From NCBI GenBank assembly GCA_964350985.1, contig CAYGLK010000001.1, positions 228,528 to 292,527 on the forward strand: a stretch of 64,000 nt of DNA. Reading direction: 5' to 3'. Both the position numbers and the translations under genes were made by a program. Every line of letters begins with the position of its first letter. The stretch's first letter is position 1. The notes below the pieces were generated by a model. The model was given only the letters and a program-made list of their open reading frames with translations, made no database searches and had not been told where the DNA came from. This DNA is from an uncultured Candidatus Saccharibacteria bacterium (GTDB lineage: Bacteria; Patescibacteriota; Minisyncoccia; Phycocordibacterales; UBA918). Positions 55,502 through 64,000 of this stretch are shown here, one piece after another.

Positions 55502-56810
55502 TTGTCATATTGTCCTCTCTAAACAACACATCGATTCTATCTTTTATCTGTTTAACTGAAATGTTTTTCATAGTTTTCTCAGTTCTCGAATAAGCCGTCC
55601 AGTCACCTGCTGCTACAAACTCAGTTAGCTCAGCGGCAATATTTAGACTACTGTCTCGATTAAATATTTCGTCGGTCAATGATTTAGTTACAAGTGTAGG
55701 TAGGTTTCTTTTAATATATCTTTCTTGTGTCTGGCTGACAATTTTTCTAACTAGAGCTTCCATTTTTTCATGAGTAATTTTTTTAGTGAGAGTGATATAG
55801 ATAACAGCAAGATTTGTGTCTCTTGTTGGTTCTTGGCTAACGACAACACTTGTTGCTAGCCCCTTATCAACTAATTCACGATGCAGAATATTGTCCTCTC
55901 CATCTGCCAGTAGCTCTAGACTAAGTGCAGTTTCGTACCAGCCGGCAGACGGTAGACCAGGGTGTTTTAAGCCTATAGCGACGATCTGAGTTGTTCCTGG
56001 ACGCTTTACTTCAACACGTCTAATCCCTTCTTGTTTTGGTTCAATTATTACTGGCTTTGGAATATGTGAGGTGACTTTTAGATGACTAAAGTTTTTAGCT
56101 ATTTCATCCAACGCTTCTTTTTCTTCAATGTCACCGATAATCATCAAAGTAGCATTATTTGGAGCATAGAATTTTTCATAGAAACTTCTCAGTTTTTCTA
56201 CGGTATAAGCCTCAATATCCTCTCTAAAACCAATAGTTTCATGTCCATAAGGATGACTTAAGAAAGCACATGAACACATAGTAACCGAAAGAGCGAATTT
56301 TGGATCGCCATTGTACATATCAAACTCACTCAAAACATTAGTTCGTTCAGGTTGGAATTCTTTATCTGAAAGTACTACGTCTCGCATTCTTTCAGCTTCT
56401 ATTTTAAGAGCTCTAGAAAAATGACTTTTCTCATAAGAAAAATAGTATGTGGTTCGGTCTAGCCAGGTATTTGCATTTAATACAACTCCAACCTCCCTTT
56501 CAAACTGCATAGCTGCAGAGTCAGATTTGTTCTTTAAGTCAAAACTGGTCGGTTTAAACAGCATATGCTCAAGCATGTGTGCTACTCCGGTTTCGCCCGC
56601 TTGTTCATCTCGAGCACCTGCTAAATAAGTAATATTAGTTGTAACTACTTTGGTATCAGGGATGTATTTGTATAAAACTCTCAAGCCATTTGTTTTTAAA
56701 ACAAATTCTGAAATATCGTTTACTTTTTGGATTAGTTTAAAATTTTTAGAGACGGTACTTCTCGTCTTCGCTTTTTTTGACATTATGTAAAAAGTTTTTG
56801 TATTCTTCAA
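55479..56810 (-). CDS. M16 family zinc peptidase (insulinase-like), catalytic subunit
   Basis: inverted zinc-binding motif HMLEHMLFK (HxxEH). Confidence 0.75.
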   Translation of the reverse strand: MKNTKTFYIMSKKAKTRSTVSKNFKLIQKVNDISEFVLKTNGLRVLYKYIPDTKVVTTNITYLAGARDEQAGETGVAHMLEHMLFKPTSFDLKNKSDSAAMQFEREVGVVLNANTWLDRTTYYFSYEKSHFSRALKIEAERMRDVVLSDKEFQPERTNVLSEFDMYNGDPKFALSVTMCSCAFLSHPYGHETIGFREDIEAYTVEKLRSFYEKFYAPNNATLMIIGDIEEKEALDEIAKNFSHLKVTSHIPKPVIIEPKQEGIRRVEVKRPGTTQIVAIGLKHPGLPSAGWYETALSLELLADGEDNILHRELVDKGLATSVVVSQEPTRDTNLAVIYITLTKKITHEKMEALVRKIVSQTQERYIKRNLPTLVTKSLTDEIFNRDSSLNIAAELTEFVAAGDWTAYSRTEKTMKNISVKQIKDRIDVLFREDNMTIGFYKSF

Positions 56811-57366
56811 ATACGTGATTAAACTCAGCTAGGATATTTCCAGAGAGTCGGTTGTTAATGACATTTGCTACTAGCTGGTAAGACTCTAACCTTTCATCAA
56901 AGTTTTTTCCAAAATCTTGTATAAATCTTTCAGAGGCATCAGTATAATCTTCAATAGACGTTCTAAAATTATGCATTTTGTCAGCAGCAGCAACTAGAAC
57001 AGCCTCTTTTGGACCTTTCTTTAGTTGTTCAACATATTTTCGCTTTCTGTCCTTAAAGGAAAGCCTGTCTTCTACTTCCCCTCTTGGTTCAGTCACCGCT
57101 TCTACAATGTCGCGAACTTTACCACCAAAATCTTCTTGTAGCTCATCAACGGTGTAGTCTGTGTCTTCAAGTGTGTCGTGAAGTAGGGCTGCAATTATCA
57201 CGTCCTCATCTTTGGTGTAATCAAGTAAGGTAAAAGCGGTAGCCATTAAGTGGGTCACATATGGAAATGGCATTGAACCTTTTCGTAATTGATCTTTGTG
57301 CAGCACAGCAGCAGCTCTGATGGCTTGTTCAATACGATAGGAGTACATATGGCAATAGTGTATCAC
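56746..57366 (-). CDS. HD-domain (p)ppGpp hydrolase-like protein (SpoT/Mesh1-type HD)
   Basis: HLMATA...LLHDTLEDT motif; the real start is probably an internal Met (about 57348). Confidence 0.55.
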   Translation of the reverse strand: MIHYCHMYSYRIEQAIRAAAVLHKDQLRKGSMPFPYVTHLMATAFTLLDYTKDEDVIIAALLHDTLEDTDYTVDELQEDFGGKVRDIVEAVTEPRGEVEDRLSFKDRKRKYVEQLKKGPKEAVLVAAADKMHNFRTSIEDYTDASERFIQDFGKNFDERLESYQLVANVINNRLSGNILAEFNHVFEEYKNFLHNVKKSEDEKYRL

Positions 57367-57391: not shown

Positions 57392-57679
57392 TTAGACTTT
57401 TTGCTTCCAGCCCTCTTCTTTTAATTTTTTGTACTTCTCGCCTGCCCCGCCGCGATTATAGCCACCAAGGGATCCGTCACTTTTAATAACTCGATGGCAA
57501 GGAATGTTTAAATCGAAGTTTTTAGCCATTATTTGTGCTACTGCTCGAGCTGCTAAGGGATTTTTGGCTTTTTGAGCTACTTCCTTATAACTAAGTGTTT
57601 TTCCTTTAGGAATAGCTTTCACAATCTTTTCCACAGCAATTCTAAAAGTGCTTTTGTCAGGGTTATTTTTTGTTGGCAT
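57392..57679 (-). CDS. ogt: methylated-DNA--protein-cysteine methyltransferase
   Basis: active-site PCHRV; start placed at an internal Met; 17-nt overlap with the upstream nuclease gene. Confidence 0.8.
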   Translation of the reverse strand: MPTKNNPDKSTFRIAVEKIVKAIPKGKTLSYKEVAQKAKNPLAARAVAQIMAKNFDLNIPCHRVIKSDGSLGGYNRGGAGEKYKKLKEEGWKQKV

Positions 57680-58451
57680 GGTAGATAGCTTGTAACTTTT
57701 TACCAGCATGTTCACGATAAGGACAGTACTCACAGTTTTCACCAGTTGGAGGTAGGTCATTTTTCTGAAGGCAATCCTTTATCTTTAGTAGAGTCTCGTC
57801 TATCCATTCTGTCTCTCCAGTACAAGGTACTAGTGTTGTTTGGAAACTAAGCATGTCATCGAAAGTTCTTGAGTCTCCAACGATAGCGTTGGCATAGACA
57901 AAGTAACCTGTGTTATCGACTTCAAAGCCATTTTTTCGTAGTAACCATTGATAAACCCCCATCTGTCGCTTGTAAGAGTCCTCCCAACTACTGTCGCTCA
58001 ATGTTTCGATCTTAGATTCCTTAGAAGTAGCTTTGTAATCAATAACGATTAAACTTCCATCAGGTTTTTGCCAGATATCGTCAACCGCCCCAGAAATAGT
58101 AAAACCAGTTTCTTTGTCATTGTAGGTAATACCAACAAAATTTTCTCGCCAATCATCTAGAGATTTGTGCGTAAAAGGAATTGCATCGATATCATATTCC
58201 AACATTATTGGATGTGGCTCTTTTGATTCCCGATAGCTATCAAATTCTCTTTTGAATAGCTCATCCACTGCAATGTTAAGTGTAAAGGAGGGACCTCGAG
58301 GTCGTGCTGTGCCAAGTTTATTGTCTAAATAGAAGCAGCGGGGACATTCTGTAAAAAGCTCTATTTTTGAGCGTGAAAGCTTCCATTTTCCTCCACCATA
58401 GTTCCAGTCTTTGTGTCGATTTGGATTATAATACTTTTTTGTTTCAGCCAT
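57663..58451 (-). CDS. Cas4/RecB-like PD-(D/E)xK nuclease with Fe-S cysteine cluster
   Basis: N-terminal CPRCFY, central VIDYKATSK (D..K of PD-DxK), C-terminal C..CEYCPY cysteines. Confidence 0.6.
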   Translation of the reverse strand: MAETKKYYNPNRHKDWNYGGGKWKLSRSKIELFTECPRCFYLDNKLGTARPRGPSFTLNIAVDELFKREFDSYRESKEPHPIMLEYDIDAIPFTHKSLDDWRENFVGITYNDKETGFTISGAVDDIWQKPDGSLIVIDYKATSKESKIETLSDSSWEDSYKRQMGVYQWLLRKNGFEVDNTGYFVYANAIVGDSRTFDDMLSFQTTLVPCTGETEWIDETLLKIKDCLQKNDLPPTGENCEYCPYREHAGKKLQAIYHANKK

Positions 58452-58539: not shown

Positions 58540-59073
58540 TTACTTAGCTGTGAAAGTAGCAAAGATTGAATCTAGTTGAACATCGTCTGCCATACTAAAT
58601 TGTCGATCTCCATTTTCAGTATAGATTACAACAGCGTAAGTCTTTCCTGCTTCAGTTGATCGCTGTAGGAAAACTTCAGTTGGAACAAGTCCTTGTGATT
58701 CACTAAATCGTGATACTCCAAGAAGACCACCCAATTGTCCGTCTGTGTAGTCTCGTACACCAATCCATCCTTCACTGATTGGATAAGTAACACTTTCAAG
58801 AGCAAGAGAACTTCCAGCTTTTGTATCTACAACACTTACGTCACCTTCTCCTACTGATAGCGCTGGTGCAACTTCAACTTCTTCATCCATTTCTTCGTCA
58901 GAGTCATCTTCATCCATTTCAGCTTCCATTTCAGTTTTGTCGTCCATCTCTTTTTCCATATCGTGTTTGTCATCAGCTGGACTTGAGAATGCCCAAACTA
59001 AAAGACCACCGATTAATAGACCAACAACAAATGAAACTATAGTCTTTTGTCCCTCCTGTTTTTCTTCTGTCAT
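58540..59073 (-). CDS. membrane-anchored protein with acidic Met/Glu/Asp-rich linker
   Basis: single N-terminal TM, EMDxxxEME repeats. Confidence 0.4.
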   Translation of the reverse strand: MTEEKQEGQKTIVSFVVGLLIGGLLVWAFSSPADDKHDMEKEMDDKTEMEAEMDEDDSDEEMDEEVEVAPALSVGEGDVSVVDTKAGSSLALESVTYPISEGWIGVRDYTDGQLGGLLGVSRFSESQGLVPTEVFLQRSTEAGKTYAVVIYTENGDRQFSMADDVQLDSIFATFTAK

Positions 59074-59163: not shown

Positions 59164-60003
59164 TTATTTATTAACGTTACAGACCTGTTTTGCCTCATTT
59201 AACACTCTATTTTGCTTAGTTGCGGAAAGATGAAGGAAGTTTAGGATGTGTGGCTTATCAAGTAGATCTCGACAAATTATGACGTCATGGCTAATTAAAA
59301 CTGTTATTTGACTGGTTGAAAGTGACTGAAGGACTGATATTGGATAGACACGCGCTTTTTGGATCCGGTCATGTAGGTTGTTGTTTTTAGGATAGTCCCA
59401 GCTAAGAAGTTTTAGTCCAACGCATGCACCGTATTTTTCGGCCGTAGAAGTAAATTTTGTGTTGGTTATTAGCCAAAAATCAGTAATGCTGCAGATACTT
59501 TCGTTGCAGATTTTGACTCCCTGTAGGTCAATCAGGCGTGCATATGAATACATTGCCACTTGTAGATCTGTCTTAATACCGGGTCGGGCATGAAATTTAG
59601 CTTCACCAACAAAACTATTAGATTCTTTGTAAGCGGCAATATCAATTTCGTGTGGAGCACACTTCCCTTGTAAGATTATTCCTGTTTGTGTCTCATAACC
59701 TTCACTTTGAAAAAGTTTTGCCAAAAACTTTTCAAACGGAAAGCCAGTCGGACCGAGTCCAAGTAGTGCCCTTCTAAGTGAGTATCGAGTTGCGGCCGGG
59801 GTTTTACTTTGTCTAAGTAAGGTAAAAGCATGACGGTAAATTTCTTGGGTTCTAATGCCGTCATGTAGGATTTTGTTGATTTCAGAAACAATAAAATTAC
59901 TTTCTTCAGGACTAGCCCCAGCTCGTCTGAGTGAACGTCGAAGTTTTTCAACTTTGAAAAACTCTTGCTTCCCATCGGCCTTAGTAATTTTAAAGTGCAT
60001 CAA
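59164..60003 (-). CDS. ATP-cone domain fused to Mrr-like PD-(D/E)xK restriction-endonuclease fold
   Basis: N-terminal ATP-cone-like MMHFKITKADGKQEFFKVEKLRRSLRRAG; central HEIDIAAY...VGEAKF (D-EAK) nuclease motif. Confidence 0.5.
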   Translation of the reverse strand: MMHFKITKADGKQEFFKVEKLRRSLRRAGASPEESNFIVSEINKILHDGIRTQEIYRHAFTLLRQSKTPAATRYSLRRALLGLGPTGFPFEKFLAKLFQSEGYETQTGIILQGKCAPHEIDIAAYKESNSFVGEAKFHARPGIKTDLQVAMYSYARLIDLQGVKICNESICSITDFWLITNTKFTSTAEKYGACVGLKLLSWDYPKNNNLHDRIQKARVYPISVLQSLSTSQITVLISHDVIICRDLLDKPHILNFLHLSATKQNRVLNEAKQVCNVNK

Positions 60004-61058
60004 GTTATGATACCACCACCGACACAGACTTGATCGTTATATAGTACACAGGATTGCCCTACAGCAGCCGCTTCAGTTTCGTCCAATACTTGCAATTCAA
60101 TCTGGTCAAAAGCTACAGATAAAACTCTGACGGAAAATGGAGTTTGCCGATAGCGAGTCTGCGCTAAGTATGTCTCACCAAGTTTTAGTTTATTTCGTAA
60201 AACAGATTTTCTTAAAGTAATAGTCTGGCTCAAGTCCATAGCAGGCTTTTCAGTACTAACAACAATAGTATTAGTGTTGATATTTTTACTTTTTACATAG
60301 TAAGCCAACCTTGAGTCATTTTTTGTCGCGATAGTAAAACCGTGCCTTTGACCAATAGTGTAAATTAAAGCTCCTTCATGCTGACCTATCATTTCACCAT
60401 TCATGTTTAGGACTTCTCCTGGTATTAAGTTTGTATAGTGTGATAAGAAATCTTTAATATCAATGTGTCCCAAAAAACACACCCCTTGGCTATCTTTTTT
60501 TTGAGCTGTCGGTATTCCGGCTTTTTCTGCTTCTTCTCTGATAGTTGATTTTTCAGATGAACCAACTGGTAACAAAGTGTAGTCCAACTGTTCTTTTGAT
60601 AGTGACCATAAAAAATATGACTGGTCTTTGTTCTTGTCTAAGCCTCTAACAAGATTGTCATGATCCCCACTATTAATTTTTTGAGCATAGTGTCCGGTGG
60701 CAATAAAATCAGCTTTGTGTTCACGAGCAAAATCAACAAAGGCTCCAAACTTAACGTGTTTGTTACACATCACATCAGGATTTGGTGTCCGACCAGCTAG
60801 GTACTCTTCGATAAAGTACTTAGCCACTTCGTCGCGGTAAGCTTTTTCTGCGTCGCAAGTTAAAAATGGTATATCAAGATGAGCGGCTACTCGCATGGCA
60901 TCAAGTCTCTCCTCTTCCCAGTTACATACCAAAAAATCAGGGTGCCAGACCTTAATAAAGACTCCAATGACTTCGTAACCCATCTTTTTTAAGCGCAAGG
61001 CCGCTACAGATGAATCAACTCCACCGGAGAGTCCCACAAAAATTTTTTGTTTCTTCAT
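60000..61058 (-). CDS. mnmA: tRNA-specific 2-thiouridylase
   Basis: PP-loop VGLSGGVDSSV. Confidence 0.85.
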   Translation of the reverse strand: MKKQKIFVGLSGGVDSSVAALRLKKMGYEVIGVFIKVWHPDFLVCNWEEERLDAMRVAAHLDIPFLTCDAEKAYRDEVAKYFIEEYLAGRTPNPDVMCNKHVKFGAFVDFAREHKADFIATGHYAQKINSGDHDNLVRGLDKNKDQSYFLWSLSKEQLDYTLLPVGSSEKSTIREEAEKAGIPTAQKKDSQGVCFLGHIDIKDFLSHYTNLIPGEVLNMNGEMIGQHEGALIYTIGQRHGFTIATKNDSRLAYYVKSKNINTNTIVVSTEKPAMDLSQTITLRKSVLRNKLKLGETYLAQTRYRQTPFSVRVLSVAFDQIELQVLDETEAAAVGQSCVLYNDQVCVGGGIIT

Positions 61059-62120: not shown

Positions 62121-63458
62121 TTAATTAGCAAACGGGATACCAGTTGGTAAGTTTCCTGGGGCTTCTTTTCTGGCTGCTGTGATACGTCCGAGTGAAGGCG
62201 TAACGACTGTACTTCCCGGAATATGATACATAGTCGCCAGTTCTTCAACTGACATGATTTTTGCGGCATCAAGAGAGTCTTTGCGGTCCCGGTAATAATA
62301 ATAACGTGACTTATAATCAAAAAATTCTTCTTTTTTCCACTTCATTATTTTTTTTCCTTTTGGATCAGAAAATACCTTGTAGTTAAAGTCACTTCTCCAT
62401 CTCACTCCAATACCATTTCTTCCAATAACATCGTATTGTGAAAAAGCTCTAATAAATGGTGAAATAATATCGCCATTAAATTTACCCTTTTCTGTAATGT
62501 AATACCATCGTATTCCAACTTCGTAAGCATATTTTGCTGTATTCCTTTCTATTGCTGCTATTGTGTCTCTTTCACCCATGGTCAAGGTAGGAGCTTTTTC
62601 ATAAGTGTCAGGATCAATACTAGCTCTCTCATCCCTTTTCATTATTTTATTTATGTGTTCTTTTCCAGCCGTATCCCAAGTTGGTACATTACGGAAAGGA
62701 CTTCCGTTTTTAAATTCTTTCTTTATGTGTGGTACCGCCAAGAATTGTACCCAAAGTCTCTCATGAGGTTTCAATTGACTTAATTGTTCAAGGATTGGAG
62801 CCATCGGTTCCACCTTTTGCTCCTCTTTTGGAAGTCTGTCCATACCCATGTCAATATAAGTCTTTAGTGGCAGGACATCTGCTTCTTTTTTAGTCATATG
62901 AAAAACCATGTATTCATATTTTTCAGGATTCCATTTAATTTCATCTACATAGTCAAACTCTTCTTCAATTACTTCAATTCCAGGATATTGAGCGTAAAGT
63001 TGAGCTTCCAAAGCATTTTTTACTTTTTTTGTCGGTACATTTATATAAAAACGGACTTCCCCACCGATTGAAACTAATTCAAAACTGTTGGTTAAGGGAC
63101 TTTTTCCGTCAATATATGTTTGAAAAATATTATCAGGAGTTTGTGCGTTATGGATTTGAGCTAATACTACTTCCATTGCTTCCGGGGATTTAAACACTTC
63201 AGGTGGTAATTTTATTCGGAGTGTAGTTCGGCCATTATATGCAGAGTATTCGTTGGTTACGTAGTACATCCATCGATCAAAAGTCACAGTCAGCAACGCT
63301 AGTGGTAACCAGATTGGGGTCAAGGCGATCATTACTGATATTACCGGACCCGCATCAACATTTACTAGATTTAGAATGAAACTAAAAAAGAAAAATCCTA
63401 ATACTAAAAATACCGGTCCACCAAAAGCTCCTAGAATTGTTTTAAATATTTCTACCAT
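62121..63458 (-). CDS. membrane protein, unknown function
   Basis: 445 aa, 2 N-terminal TM, Lys/Tyr-rich soluble domain. Confidence 0.4.
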   Translation of the reverse strand: MVEIFKTILGAFGGPVFLVLGFFFFSFILNLVNVDAGPVISVMIALTPIWLPLALLTVTFDRWMYYVTNEYSAYNGRTTLRIKLPPEVFKSPEAMEVVLAQIHNAQTPDNIFQTYIDGKSPLTNSFELVSIGGEVRFYINVPTKKVKNALEAQLYAQYPGIEVIEEEFDYVDEIKWNPEKYEYMVFHMTKKEADVLPLKTYIDMGMDRLPKEEQKVEPMAPILEQLSQLKPHERLWVQFLAVPHIKKEFKNGSPFRNVPTWDTAGKEHINKIMKRDERASIDPDTYEKAPTLTMGERDTIAAIERNTAKYAYEVGIRWYYITEKGKFNGDIISPFIRAFSQYDVIGRNGIGVRWRSDFNYKVFSDPKGKKIMKWKKEEFFDYKSRYYYYRDRKDSLDAAKIMSVEELATMYHIPGSTVVTPSLGRITAARKEAPGNLPTGIPFAN

Positions 63459-63530: not shown

Positions 63531-64000
63531 TTATTCAGCGAGAGCGTAAGTTCCGTTTCCAAGGCGTTTAAAGATGTTGGCGTCTTGTAGATTAACTATA
63601 ATCGTATTGTCTTTAACGTATCTTTCTTTACGAACTCGATCAATTAATTCTTCTCGAGATAAAGGACCTTCCTTTTCTAGTATTTCTCGTAGAACTTCCT
63701 TAACTACACCAGCTGTGTACCCCCATTCAGTTAGCGCGTATAGTCCACGTCCTACTAGTACAAACCGATCATCCTTGATTAGTTCGTTGTGAGTCGTAGC
63801 AACGTGCGCCTTGTGTTTGAAGAGAGTATTGATAGCTTCAGCTACTTCCTTAAAGTGAAGTGGTGAACCGTGACGCTTAACTGCCAAGTAGGCGTGGTCG
63901 CGGATTCCTTTTACTCGAACATTTGGACTGTCAGCTCTCCCCCAGTCTCCTAGTGGATTACTACCAATTTGTTTTGAGATCTGTAACCATCGCTTTAGGA
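63531..64000 (-). CDS. 3' part of a gene running off the window; C-terminal HARE-HTH-like domain
   Basis: the reading frame stays open upstream of the track start (TTG at 63887) to the window edge; DDRFVLVGRGLYALTEWGY resembles the HARE-HTH motif. Confidence 0.35.
   Translation of the reverse strand, partial: LKRWLQISKQIGSNPLGDWGRADSPNVRVKGIRDHAYLAVKRHGSPLHFKEVAEAINTLFKHKAHVATTHNELIKDDRFVLVGRGLYALTEWGYTAGVVKEVLREILEKEGPLSREELIDRVRKERYVKDNTIIVNLQDANIFKRLGNGTYALAE

Follow-up and report, generated by a model that had tools for sequence, protein, structure and literature searches.

Within a 64,000-nucleotide stretch of the genome of an uncultured Candidatus Saccharibacteria bacterium (contig CAYGLK010000001.1; the whole of this stretch is referred to as the window), a gene on the reverse strand encodes a 278-residue protein in which Pfam analysis identified three domains, these being an ATP-cone, a PD-(D/E)xK core and an AF1548-like C-terminal helical domain. 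Based on its sequence and on a structural model, the protein was with good probability suggested to be an active PD-(D/E)xK nuclease, the activity of which is governed by adenine nucleotides bound at its ATP-cone; gating of this kind accounts for the domain anatomy with the fewest assumptions. The more comprehensive reading, i.e., that of an adenine-nucleotide-gated AF1548-family nuclease which would serve energy-linked nucleic-acid turnover in a housekeeping or stress role, is considered to have about an even chance of being correct. The relevant features of the gene are the following:

59164 to 60000, reverse strand: gene of the ATP-cone / PD-(D/E)xK / AF1548-C nuclease, 278 aa
59770 to 59991, reverse strand: ATP-cone domain, aa 4-77, Pfam match, with K7, E13, F15 and K19 present
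59725 to 59769, reverse strand: linker and start of nuclease helix alpha1 (...LGPTGFPFEKF), aa 78-92, with G83, G86, F89 and E90 invariant
59401 to 59745, reverse strand: PD-(D/E)xK (Mrr/Hjc-like) core, aa 86-200, including the TNTKFT motif at aa 179-184
59641 to 59652, reverse strand: codons cac gaa att gat of H117-E118-I-D120, with the predicted catalytic Asp
59596 to 59604, reverse strand: codons gaa gct aaa of E133-A-K135, the ExK part of the predicted catalytic motif
59182 to 59346, reverse strand: AF1548-like C-terminal helical domain, aa 219-273, PF22357

The longest open reading frame (ORF) in the ORF list spans 59164 to 60003 on the same strand and comprises 279 aa, with a TTG at 60003. 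Judged from sequence comparison, the ATG at 60000 is the likely true start, yielding the 278-residue product, since a 100% identical protein (P0001) possesses 278 aa and since the N-termini of homologues agree with this start.

A first-pass annotation, made from the letters of the window, had recognized an ATP-cone pattern in the N-terminus of the protein, and this assignment was confirmed by Pfam, by the family profile and by the fold, whereby the pattern reads K7-x2-G10-x2-E13-x-F15-x3-K19-L-x2-S23-x3-A27. For the single sequence, the call is marginal, because the Pfam ATP-cone model (PF03477) scored 25.9 bits as compared to a cut-off of 25.8 (aa 4-77). At the family level, the assignment is solid: within the alignment that was used for all conservation counts, which comprises the window protein and 124 representatives of 50%-identity clusters, a member-by-member Pfam scan identified the ATP-cone in 116 of the 125 diverse relatives (best E 2.9e-11), and the N-terminal part of the family profile matched the NrdR and NrdD cones deposited in the PDB with E-values of 0.005-0.03. 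The AlphaFold2 model derived from the 125-sequence alignment (predicted local distance difference test, pLDDT, 96.1; predicted template modelling score, pTM, 0.92) shows the beta-hairpin roof and the four-helix bundle which define the cone fold, with strands at residues 4-6 and 12-14 and four helices, all modelled at pLDDT >90. Foldseek comparison with the PDB superposed the modelled cone onto that of E. coli NrdR with a root-mean-square deviation (rmsd) of 1.9 Å over 81 residues, NrdR cones in general being matched at 1.7-2.0 Å over 81-83 residues, and cones of ribonucleotide reductases (RNRs) were also among the matches.

For S. coelicolor NrdR, it was reported that the inner nucleotide is touched by K50, R51 and E56 and the outer one by K62, that F58 shapes the adenine pocket and that nucleotide exchange displaces the two final helices of the cone by as much as 6 Å (PMC9110341). 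Residues K7, A8, E13, F15 and K19 of the window protein correspond, at the same spacing, to NrdR K50, R51, E56, F58 and K62, and the contact residues were found in most of the 125 relatives (K7 in 125, E13 in 92, F15 in 114 with Tyr in the other 11, K19 in 120). The R51 equivalent is Ala in the window protein, a position which is occupied by Ser in E. coli NrdR. The frequency of the commonest residue amounts to 0.48 for the cone, 0.51 for the nuclease and 0.71 for the linker (aa 78-92); the cone is conserved to the same degree as the nuclease, and conservation is highest in the linker.

The second half of the first-pass annotation concerned a Mrr-like nuclease with a HEID...GEAKF motif, and this motif was located at aa 117-120 and 132-136, with E118, D120, E133 and K135 invariant in 125 of 125 sequences. 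The complete set of invariant positions comprises these four together with K7, G83, G86, F89, E90, G112, R155, D158, N180 and P220. As nuclease model, Mrr_cat (PF04471) scored 17.6 bits on the window protein (aa 86-193), i.e., below its cut-off of 21, and matched 120 of the 125 relatives (best E 9.8e-11). In the structural model, the restriction-endonuclease-like alpha-beta-beta-beta-alpha-beta core is present (helix 87-99, strands 103-111, 116-125 and 128-135, helix 146-158, strand 174-179), the catalytic E...D...(D/E)xK residues of the PD-(D/E)xK class are in register, and the nuclease domains of MspJI, AspBHI, Can2 and Cdn1 were identified as fold neighbours of the core (Foldseek, PDB). For AF1548, the catalytic residues were predicted as D38/E51/K53 by Yooseph et al. 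(PMC1821046), and D120/E133/K135 of the window protein align with these. In the model, E90 likely represents the first catalytic acid, as it is located at the start of helix alpha1, which is the position found in Hjc/Mrr-type enzymes. With the cone scoring above its cut-off and the D/E/K triad kept in the alignment, the reading as an ATP-cone joined to a nuclease domain stands.

What had been overlooked before is the C-terminal domain and, along with it, the membership of the protein in a very large and ancient family. AF1548-like_C (PF22357) scored 27.5 bits as compared to a cut-off of 23.9 on aa 219-273 and matched 84 of the 125 relatives; HHH_5 was matched in a few of them, and the C-terminal domain is covered by the crystal structure of AF1548 (PDB 1Y88). 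Sequence comparison suggests that this domain is probably a helix-hairpin-helix (HhH)-type nucleic-acid-binding module. As modelled, the three domains pack as a single compact unit.

From this architecture, a mechanism can be suggested in which binding of ATP, dATP or ADP to the cone would move the last cone helices, as it does in NrdR. These helices run via the invariant LGPxGFPFE linker directly into helix alpha1, which carries E90, so that a plausible mechanical route leads from the ligand to the active site. The nucleotide state may thereby switch the active site, the oligomeric state or both of them on and off.

Among 1.84 billion cluster representatives (50%-identity clusters), 1159 relatives were identified at E<1e-3 and 430 at E<1e-30, nearly all of which possess 265-295 aa and match from end to end. 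The fusion of cone and nuclease is near-obligate within the family, nearly all members having ~260-290 aa with the cone included. Close relatives (67-80% identity) were exclusively found in Patescibacteria, namely in Paceibacterota and in Kaiser- and Nomurabacteria. At ~42% identity, members are common in Flavobacteriaceae and other Bacteroidota and also occur in Rhodohalobacter, Pyrinomonadaceae, Criblamydia and Pontibacter, while a search with the AF1548 sequence identified cone-containing archaeal members in Archaeoglobi, Hadesarchaea, Aenigmarchaeota and Nanoarchaeota. The family is hence documented in Patescibacteria, Bacteroidota, Chlamydiota, Acidobacteriota and Archaea.

The relationship to AF1548 was documented on several levels: phmmer aligned 1Y88 with aa 93-275 of the window protein at E=3e-32, the alignment profile matched AF1548 at E=1.5e-53, and 1Y88 was the top Foldseek match in the PDB (E=3.4e-16). 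An archaeal protein of 265 aa (P0391; L168:7001-7798), which is 99% identical to the crystallised AF1548 chain, begins with MLRVRKRDGRLEEFSRAKI..., forming a canonical cone which is followed by the linker LGPSGFGFEKF, and aligns with the window protein throughout cone, nuclease core and C-terminal domain (37% identity over 272 aa). As this full-length protein has the cone and the linker upstream of the part that was solved, sequence comparison identifies 1Y88 as an N-terminally truncated family member whose ORF or construct begins internally. The picture of a "PDB ORFan" that is 20 years old is thereby put right, in that the AF1548 structure was reported without its regulatory domain.

Members of the family are named "ATP cone domain-containing protein", "restriction endonuclease", "ATPase", "Holliday junction resolvase" or "NrdR family" in databases, all of these names being domain-based annotation only. 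No NCBIfam model matches the window nuclease, and full-text literature searches yielded no published work on the ATP-cone/nuclease fusion or on the function of the family. The family is therefore already present in databases by name, with part of one member crystallised, and the window gene represents a further member. An N-terminal extension of one relative (P0198), which scored as "histone HC2" and was considered as a DNA-targeting fusion, was dropped, as it consists of low-complexity Cys/Ala/Arg repeats with a score below the cut-off; it probably results from a mis-called frame. In the annotation tables of the Saccharibacteria (Southlakia), only a protein consisting of an ATP-cone alone (SEML1_0737) was seen, for which a relation to the nuclease family could not be established.

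The genomic surroundings were compared among 45 loci of the type found in the Candidate Phyla Radiation (CPR) and, separately, among loci outside of it. The genes next to that of the nuclease within the window are:

60000 to 61058, reverse strand: mnmA (tRNA 2-thiouridylase), upstream of the nuclease gene
58540 to 59073, reverse strand: acidic protein with one N-terminal transmembrane (TM) helix, no Pfam family; downstream in 31 of 45 CPR-type loci
57663 to 58451, reverse strand: Cas4-like protein of the PD-(D/E)xK nuclease class (PDDEXK_1), containing Cys motifs; located downstream of the nuclease gene in 34 of the 45 CPR-type loci
57392 to 57760, reverse strand: minimal Ogt/MGMT-type protein, DNA_binding_1 domain only (C-terminal), PCHRV motif intact
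56746 to 57366, reverse strand: HD_4/HD protein, 206 aa (RelA/SpoT-type HD, small-alarmone-hydrolase-like)
62121 to 63458, reverse strand: 445-aa membrane protein, no Pfam match, the homologue of which in locus L083 is recorded as DUF8128
63531 to 63887: C-terminal part of a Sigma70_r4 + HARE-HTH protein

The neighbours named in the first-pass annotation, i.e., an acidic single-TM protein, a Cas4-like PDDEXK_1 protein and an Ogt-type DNA_binding_1 protein, were thus found where they had been placed. The ATG of the nuclease gene and the TGA stop codon of mnmA have one base in common, so that co-transcription and translational coupling of the two genes are almost certain. Between 54 and 63.5 kb of the window, the genes for DUF8128, YceG, MnmA, the nuclease, the acidic TM protein, the Cas4-like protein, Ogt, the HD protein and M16 peptidases are co-directional. 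The order in the 45 loci begins with Sigma70_r4/HARE-HTH, DUF8128, YceG, MnmA and the nuclease and continues with the acidic TM protein, the Cas4-like protein, Ogt and/or uracil-DNA glycosylase (UDG), HD_4 and two M16 peptidases, whereby mnmA directly precedes the nuclease gene in 43 of the 45. In more distant CPR loci the acidic protein is missing, and the Cas4-like gene comes directly after the nuclease gene. The median identity to the window in close loci is 67% for the nuclease as compared to 63% for both MnmA and the Cas4-like protein, the others reaching 52-55%, showing the nuclease gene to be as conserved, or as slowly evolving, as MnmA.

Searches for signs of mobility and defence gave a uniform picture. 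PADLOC has no defence model that matches the window nuclease, none of 50,697 phage records contains a homologue, no relatives were found on IMG/VR contigs, and viral structures gave partial-domain matches only, with no match to the full architecture; two copies were identified among 72,556 plasmid records, and neither a CRISPR nor a tandem array is present in the 64-kb window. Conserved synteny within the CPR, slow evolution and near-absence from phages and plasmids are the signature of vertical inheritance, and the window nuclease is therefore regarded as a vertically inherited housekeeping gene and not as a mobile defence module.

Outside of the CPR, 112 loci were collected from GTDB genomes and from a metagenome scan carried out with a 79-sequence subset of the alignment. 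Among the 90 loci with at least two downstream genes, 53 possess a gene for a beta-CASP metallo-beta-lactamase on the same strand at position +1 or +2, often separated from the nuclease gene by 2-12 nt or overlapping with it, and this linkage was found in 10 of 45 independent lineages (<60% identity). The partner comprises Beta-Casp and RMMBL domains and scored best with the models of aCPSF1 and Cas14, both of which cleave RNA. The string is continued, in 14 of 74 loci which span Bacteroidota, Chlamydiota and Acidobacteriota and include Criblamydia, Pontibacter and Pyrinomonadaceae, by genes for an AMP-phosphorylase-like and a phosphoribosyl-pyrophosphate (PRPP)-synthetase-like enzyme. The former was matched by the archaeal-type "thymidine phosphorylase" model NF003338 with 682 bits and by the AMP-phosphorylase model TIGR03327 with 476-506 bits as compared to a cut-off of 535; the latter is ribose-phosphate diphosphokinase-like (NF005537). 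The wider surroundings hold arrays of universal stress protein (Usp) genes under a PAS kinase and a Crp-type response regulator, genes for phosphofructokinase (PFK), type II glyceraldehyde-3-phosphate dehydrogenase (GAPDH), class I fructose-bisphosphate aldolase (FBA), a D-2-hydroxyacid (lactate-type) dehydrogenase, an iron-type alcohol dehydrogenase (Fe-ADH), enolase, phosphoketolase and acetate kinase, and further genes for polyphosphate kinase 2 (PPK2), Hsp20, MgtC and P1B copper ATPases. The non-CPR setting is one of energy and oxygen stress and of fermentation, in which the nuclease gene appears to lead a nucleic-acid- and nucleotide-catabolic sub-cluster.

Taking these neighbourhoods into account, it was suggested that the gene serves the chromosome as a housekeeping or stress gene, in dependence on the adenylate or energy status of the cell, and that the nuclease would catalyze the endonucleolytic entry step of nucleic-acid turnover, probably that of RNA, and of nucleotide salvage. 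In bacteria outside of the CPR, its partners would be the beta-CASP RNase-like enzyme encoded next to it and, in many cases, the AMP-phosphorylase-like and PRPP-synthetase-like enzymes. The specific role, i.e., that the enzyme starts turnover of RNA (or DNA) and nucleotide salvage at low energy charge, is put forward tentatively, as it was derived from the gene neighbourhoods of relatives that are ~42% identical. An extended version would see in the family a third functional class of ATP-cone proteins after RNRs and NrdR, namely an energy-charge- or dATP-gated endonuclease that opens a catabolic and salvage route for nucleic acid (ribosomal or other RNA), continued, in organisms possessing them, by a dedicated beta-CASP exonuclease, nucleoside-monophosphate (NMP)/AMP-phosphorylase-like and PRPP-synthetase-like enzymes, and that, in the CPR and in DPANN archaea, would be a core gatekeeper for the conversion of cellular or scavenged nucleic acid into nucleotides and carbon. 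Both of these groups lack de novo synthesis of nucleotides. In its entirety, this version is an unlikely one.

Several observations weigh against the proposed function. Genes for beta-CASP, phosphorylase, PRPP synthetase, Usp, PFK, GAPDH, FBA and PPK2 were sought in the 64-kb window and none was found, and the beta-CASP, phosphorylase, PRPP-synthetase and Usp partners are absent from all 45 CPR-type loci, so that the salvage role is carried over to the window protein from relatives which are only ~42% identical. The neighbours within the CPR, being of tRNA-modification and DNA-repair type, suit a role in repair at least equally well. CPR synteny itself is weak evidence for functional linkage, because gene order in the CPR is generally well kept. 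The archaeal contexts are mixed, with chiefly transporter or channel genes, and E13 of the cone is substituted in about one quarter of the relatives.

The main rival explanation starts from this repair-type neighbourhood and assumes a structure-specific nuclease of DNA repair or recombination, be it a Hjc-like resolvase or a flap- or end-processing enzyme, which is licensed by the dATP/ATP ratio and acts together with the downstream Cas4-like exonuclease, Ogt and UDG in the CPR. The frequency of the Cas4-like gene downstream of the nuclease gene, the adjoining Ogt or family-4-type UDG, the HhH-like C-terminal domain, which is typical of DNA-binding repair proteins, and the fact that ATP-cones classically read dATP are all consistent with this assumption, as are Pfam Hjc matches in 9 of 125 relatives and the name "Holliday junction resolvase" given by JGI to some archaeal members. 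However, the window protein has no Hjc match, its partners outside of the CPR are an RNase-type beta-CASP protein with RMMBL and genes for nucleotide catabolism and energy stress, which do not form a repair set, and CPR synteny may be historical and not functional; a role in repair is considered to be a serious candidate with a small share of the probability. It is also what is left of the proposal, made in the first-pass annotation, that the region from 57.4 to 60.0 kb is a small island of defence or repair genes: the repair flavour provided by the Cas4-like protein, Ogt and sometimes UDG is real and a live alternative, whereas the defence part is not supported, as the region turned out to be a block conserved in 45 CPR loci with no PADLOC, phage or CRISPR signal.

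As an anti-phage or abortive-infection effector, the protein would sense a phage-induced change of deoxynucleoside triphosphates or ATP via its cone and subsequently unleash its nuclease. A sensor joined to a PD-(D/E)xK nuclease is indeed a common design in defence, Can2, Cdn1 and MspJI are fold neighbours, a Cas4-like gene is close by, and Flavobacteria possess a second paralogue beside PycTM and SLOG/LOG genes. Opposed to this are the conserved syntenic block, the overlap with mnmA and the slow evolution of the gene, the outcome of the PADLOC, phage, IMG/VR, viral-structure and plasmid searches described above, the window being free of CRISPR arrays, and the metabolic and stress genes which surround the family elsewhere. 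While the fusion of an ATP-cone to a Mrr-like PD-(D/E)xK domain with intact motif, as originally described, is retained, its interpretation as part of an anti-phage island is improbable, and it is held with high confidence that the nuclease is no mobile anti-phage module. Even less probable is a modification-dependent (type IV) restriction enzyme resembling Mrr, in which the ATP-cone would be an accessory domain. Among nuclease families, Mrr_cat gave the best match (120 of 125 relatives), MspJI and AspBHI are fold neighbours, and many members carry the name "restriction endonuclease" at NCBI; yet the N-terminus is an ATP-cone in place of a winged-helix or SRA-type reader of modified DNA, inheritance is vertical with ~70% identity across genera, which is unlike restriction genes, and the gene is a conserved operon member in genome-reduced CPR bacteria. 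Finally, NrdR follows a similar logic in that an ATP-cone is combined with a module binding nucleic acid, and one member is named "transcriptional regulator NrdR family" by JGI, from which a catalytically dead, nucleotide-sensing DNA-binding regulator might be proposed. All catalytic residues are invariant in the 125 sequences, a Zn-ribbon is absent and no RNR genes occur among the conserved neighbours, so a regulator of that type is hardly credible.

The gated nuclease favoured here can be compared with a number of known systems. To our knowledge, ATP-cones are experimentally documented exclusively as switches of RNRs and of NrdR. RNR cones (NrdA, NrdD, NrdB) possess the same fold and motif as the cone of the window protein and exert allosteric on/off control of the attached enzyme by ATP versus dATP; in the window protein, a single cone is present and the attached enzyme is a PD-(D/E)xK nuclease. 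NrdR shares the sensor domain, with superposition at ~1.9 Å and the K/E/F/K residues, and by analogy the expected logic, a nucleotide-driven change of conformation or oligomer, may be shared as well. In NrdR, however, the output is a Zn-ribbon, the cone is C-terminal and a link to RNR exists, whereas the window protein has a nuclease as output, an N-terminal cone and no RNR link. AF1548 shares homology in its nuclease and C-terminal domains, with the same predicted D/E/K residues, its deposited structure differing by the lack of ATP-cone and linker, and the CPR protein is ~37% identical to it.

With regard to the nuclease part, type IV enzymes of the Mrr/MspJI type belong to the same catalytic-core family and possess the same trailing T-x-x-F-[TS]-x-x-A motif, but the window protein has no modified-DNA reader, is neither mobile nor variable and stays below the Mrr_cat cut-off. 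Hjc (PF01870) is a homodimeric resolvase of ~130 aa, whereas the window protein comprises three domains and is without Hjc match, only weak matches being obtained for 9 of 125 relatives. The CARF/SAVED effectors (Can1/Can2, Card1, Cdn1) follow the same design of a small-molecule sensor joined to a PD-(D/E)xK nuclease; they read cyclic oligoadenylates, in contrast to the window protein with its ATP-cone for housekeeping adenine nucleotides and no association with CRISPR or CBASS. A nuclease switched by an ATP-cone is, considering these systems, a variant of two known principles, i.e., ATP-cone allostery and sensor-gated PD-(D/E)xK nucleases. A likeness to the archaeal/CPR nucleoside (pentose-bisphosphate) pathway of AMP phosphorylase, R15P isomerase and form II/III RuBisCO, which CPR bacteria are known to use, results from the enzyme close to AMP phosphorylase and the PRPP-synthetase-like gene that follow the nuclease in several phyla. 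The phosphorylase scored under the AMP-phosphorylase equivalog cut-off, and neither ribose-1,5-bisphosphate (R15P) isomerase nor RuBisCO was seen in the loci, which sets these strings apart from that pathway; the window contains none of these genes.

The fusion of an ATP-cone to an intact nuclease in a widespread family would extend the regulatory logic of the cone to nucleic-acid cleavage. Its linkage to beta-CASP, phosphorylase, PRPP-synthetase and energy-stress genes provides a testable hypothesis, in which adenylate status would be coupled to RNA or DNA turnover, and is of relevance for how genome-reduced symbionts supply their nucleotide pools. Breadth, conservation, near-core status in the CPR and a coherent neighbourhood render the family a good experimental target.

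Some further observations concern the neighbouring genes. The acidic TM protein further comprises a Glu/Asp/Met-rich spacer and a conserved C-terminal domain of ~100 aa that belongs to no known family, and a promoter-like site (59121-59094) is located just upstream of its gene. In the ORF list, the Ogt-like gene begins within the Cas4-like gene, with ~100 nt in common; since homologues possess ~90 aa, its true start is probably internal. The HD_4 protein is kept a few genes downstream of the nuclease gene in ~20 CPR loci, and the DUF8128-type membrane protein is always found upstream, together with YceG/MltG and the Sigma70_r4 + HARE-HTH protein. In 10 of 45 lineages, P1B copper-type ATPases are encoded no more than four genes away from the nuclease (L069:3528-8966 and 22 other loci), with CusB-like HlyD, DUF411 and resistance-nodulation-division (RND) genes also nearby, and in a CPR locus of Amesbacteria the nuclease gene lies between two P1B ATPase copies, one of which overlaps by 4 nt. 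A role in Mg2+ homeostasis, as brought up by CorA and MgtC neighbours, was set aside, as the frequent P-type ATPase is the P1B copper-type pump and not MgtA. In Archaeoglobi, the orthologues overlap the 3' end of genes for an AA_permease-Usp fusion (L166), CorA (L167) and MscS (L168). Aequorivita carries a second paralogue with ATP-cone and Mrr_cat at ~5 kb from the first (L081:14239-15081 and L082:13760-14578, both on the reverse strand), which belongs to a string on the opposite strand together with PycTM (a Pycsar-effector-type TM protein), two unknown proteins and LOG/SLOG (LDcluster4); this string may constitute a nucleotide-signalling or conflict module. Finally, in 12 loci of marine Bacteroidota (L109:8862-9116 and 11 others), a conserved ORF of 84 aa, which ends with CCGGH and belongs to no Pfam family, is located between the nuclease and the beta-CASP genes.

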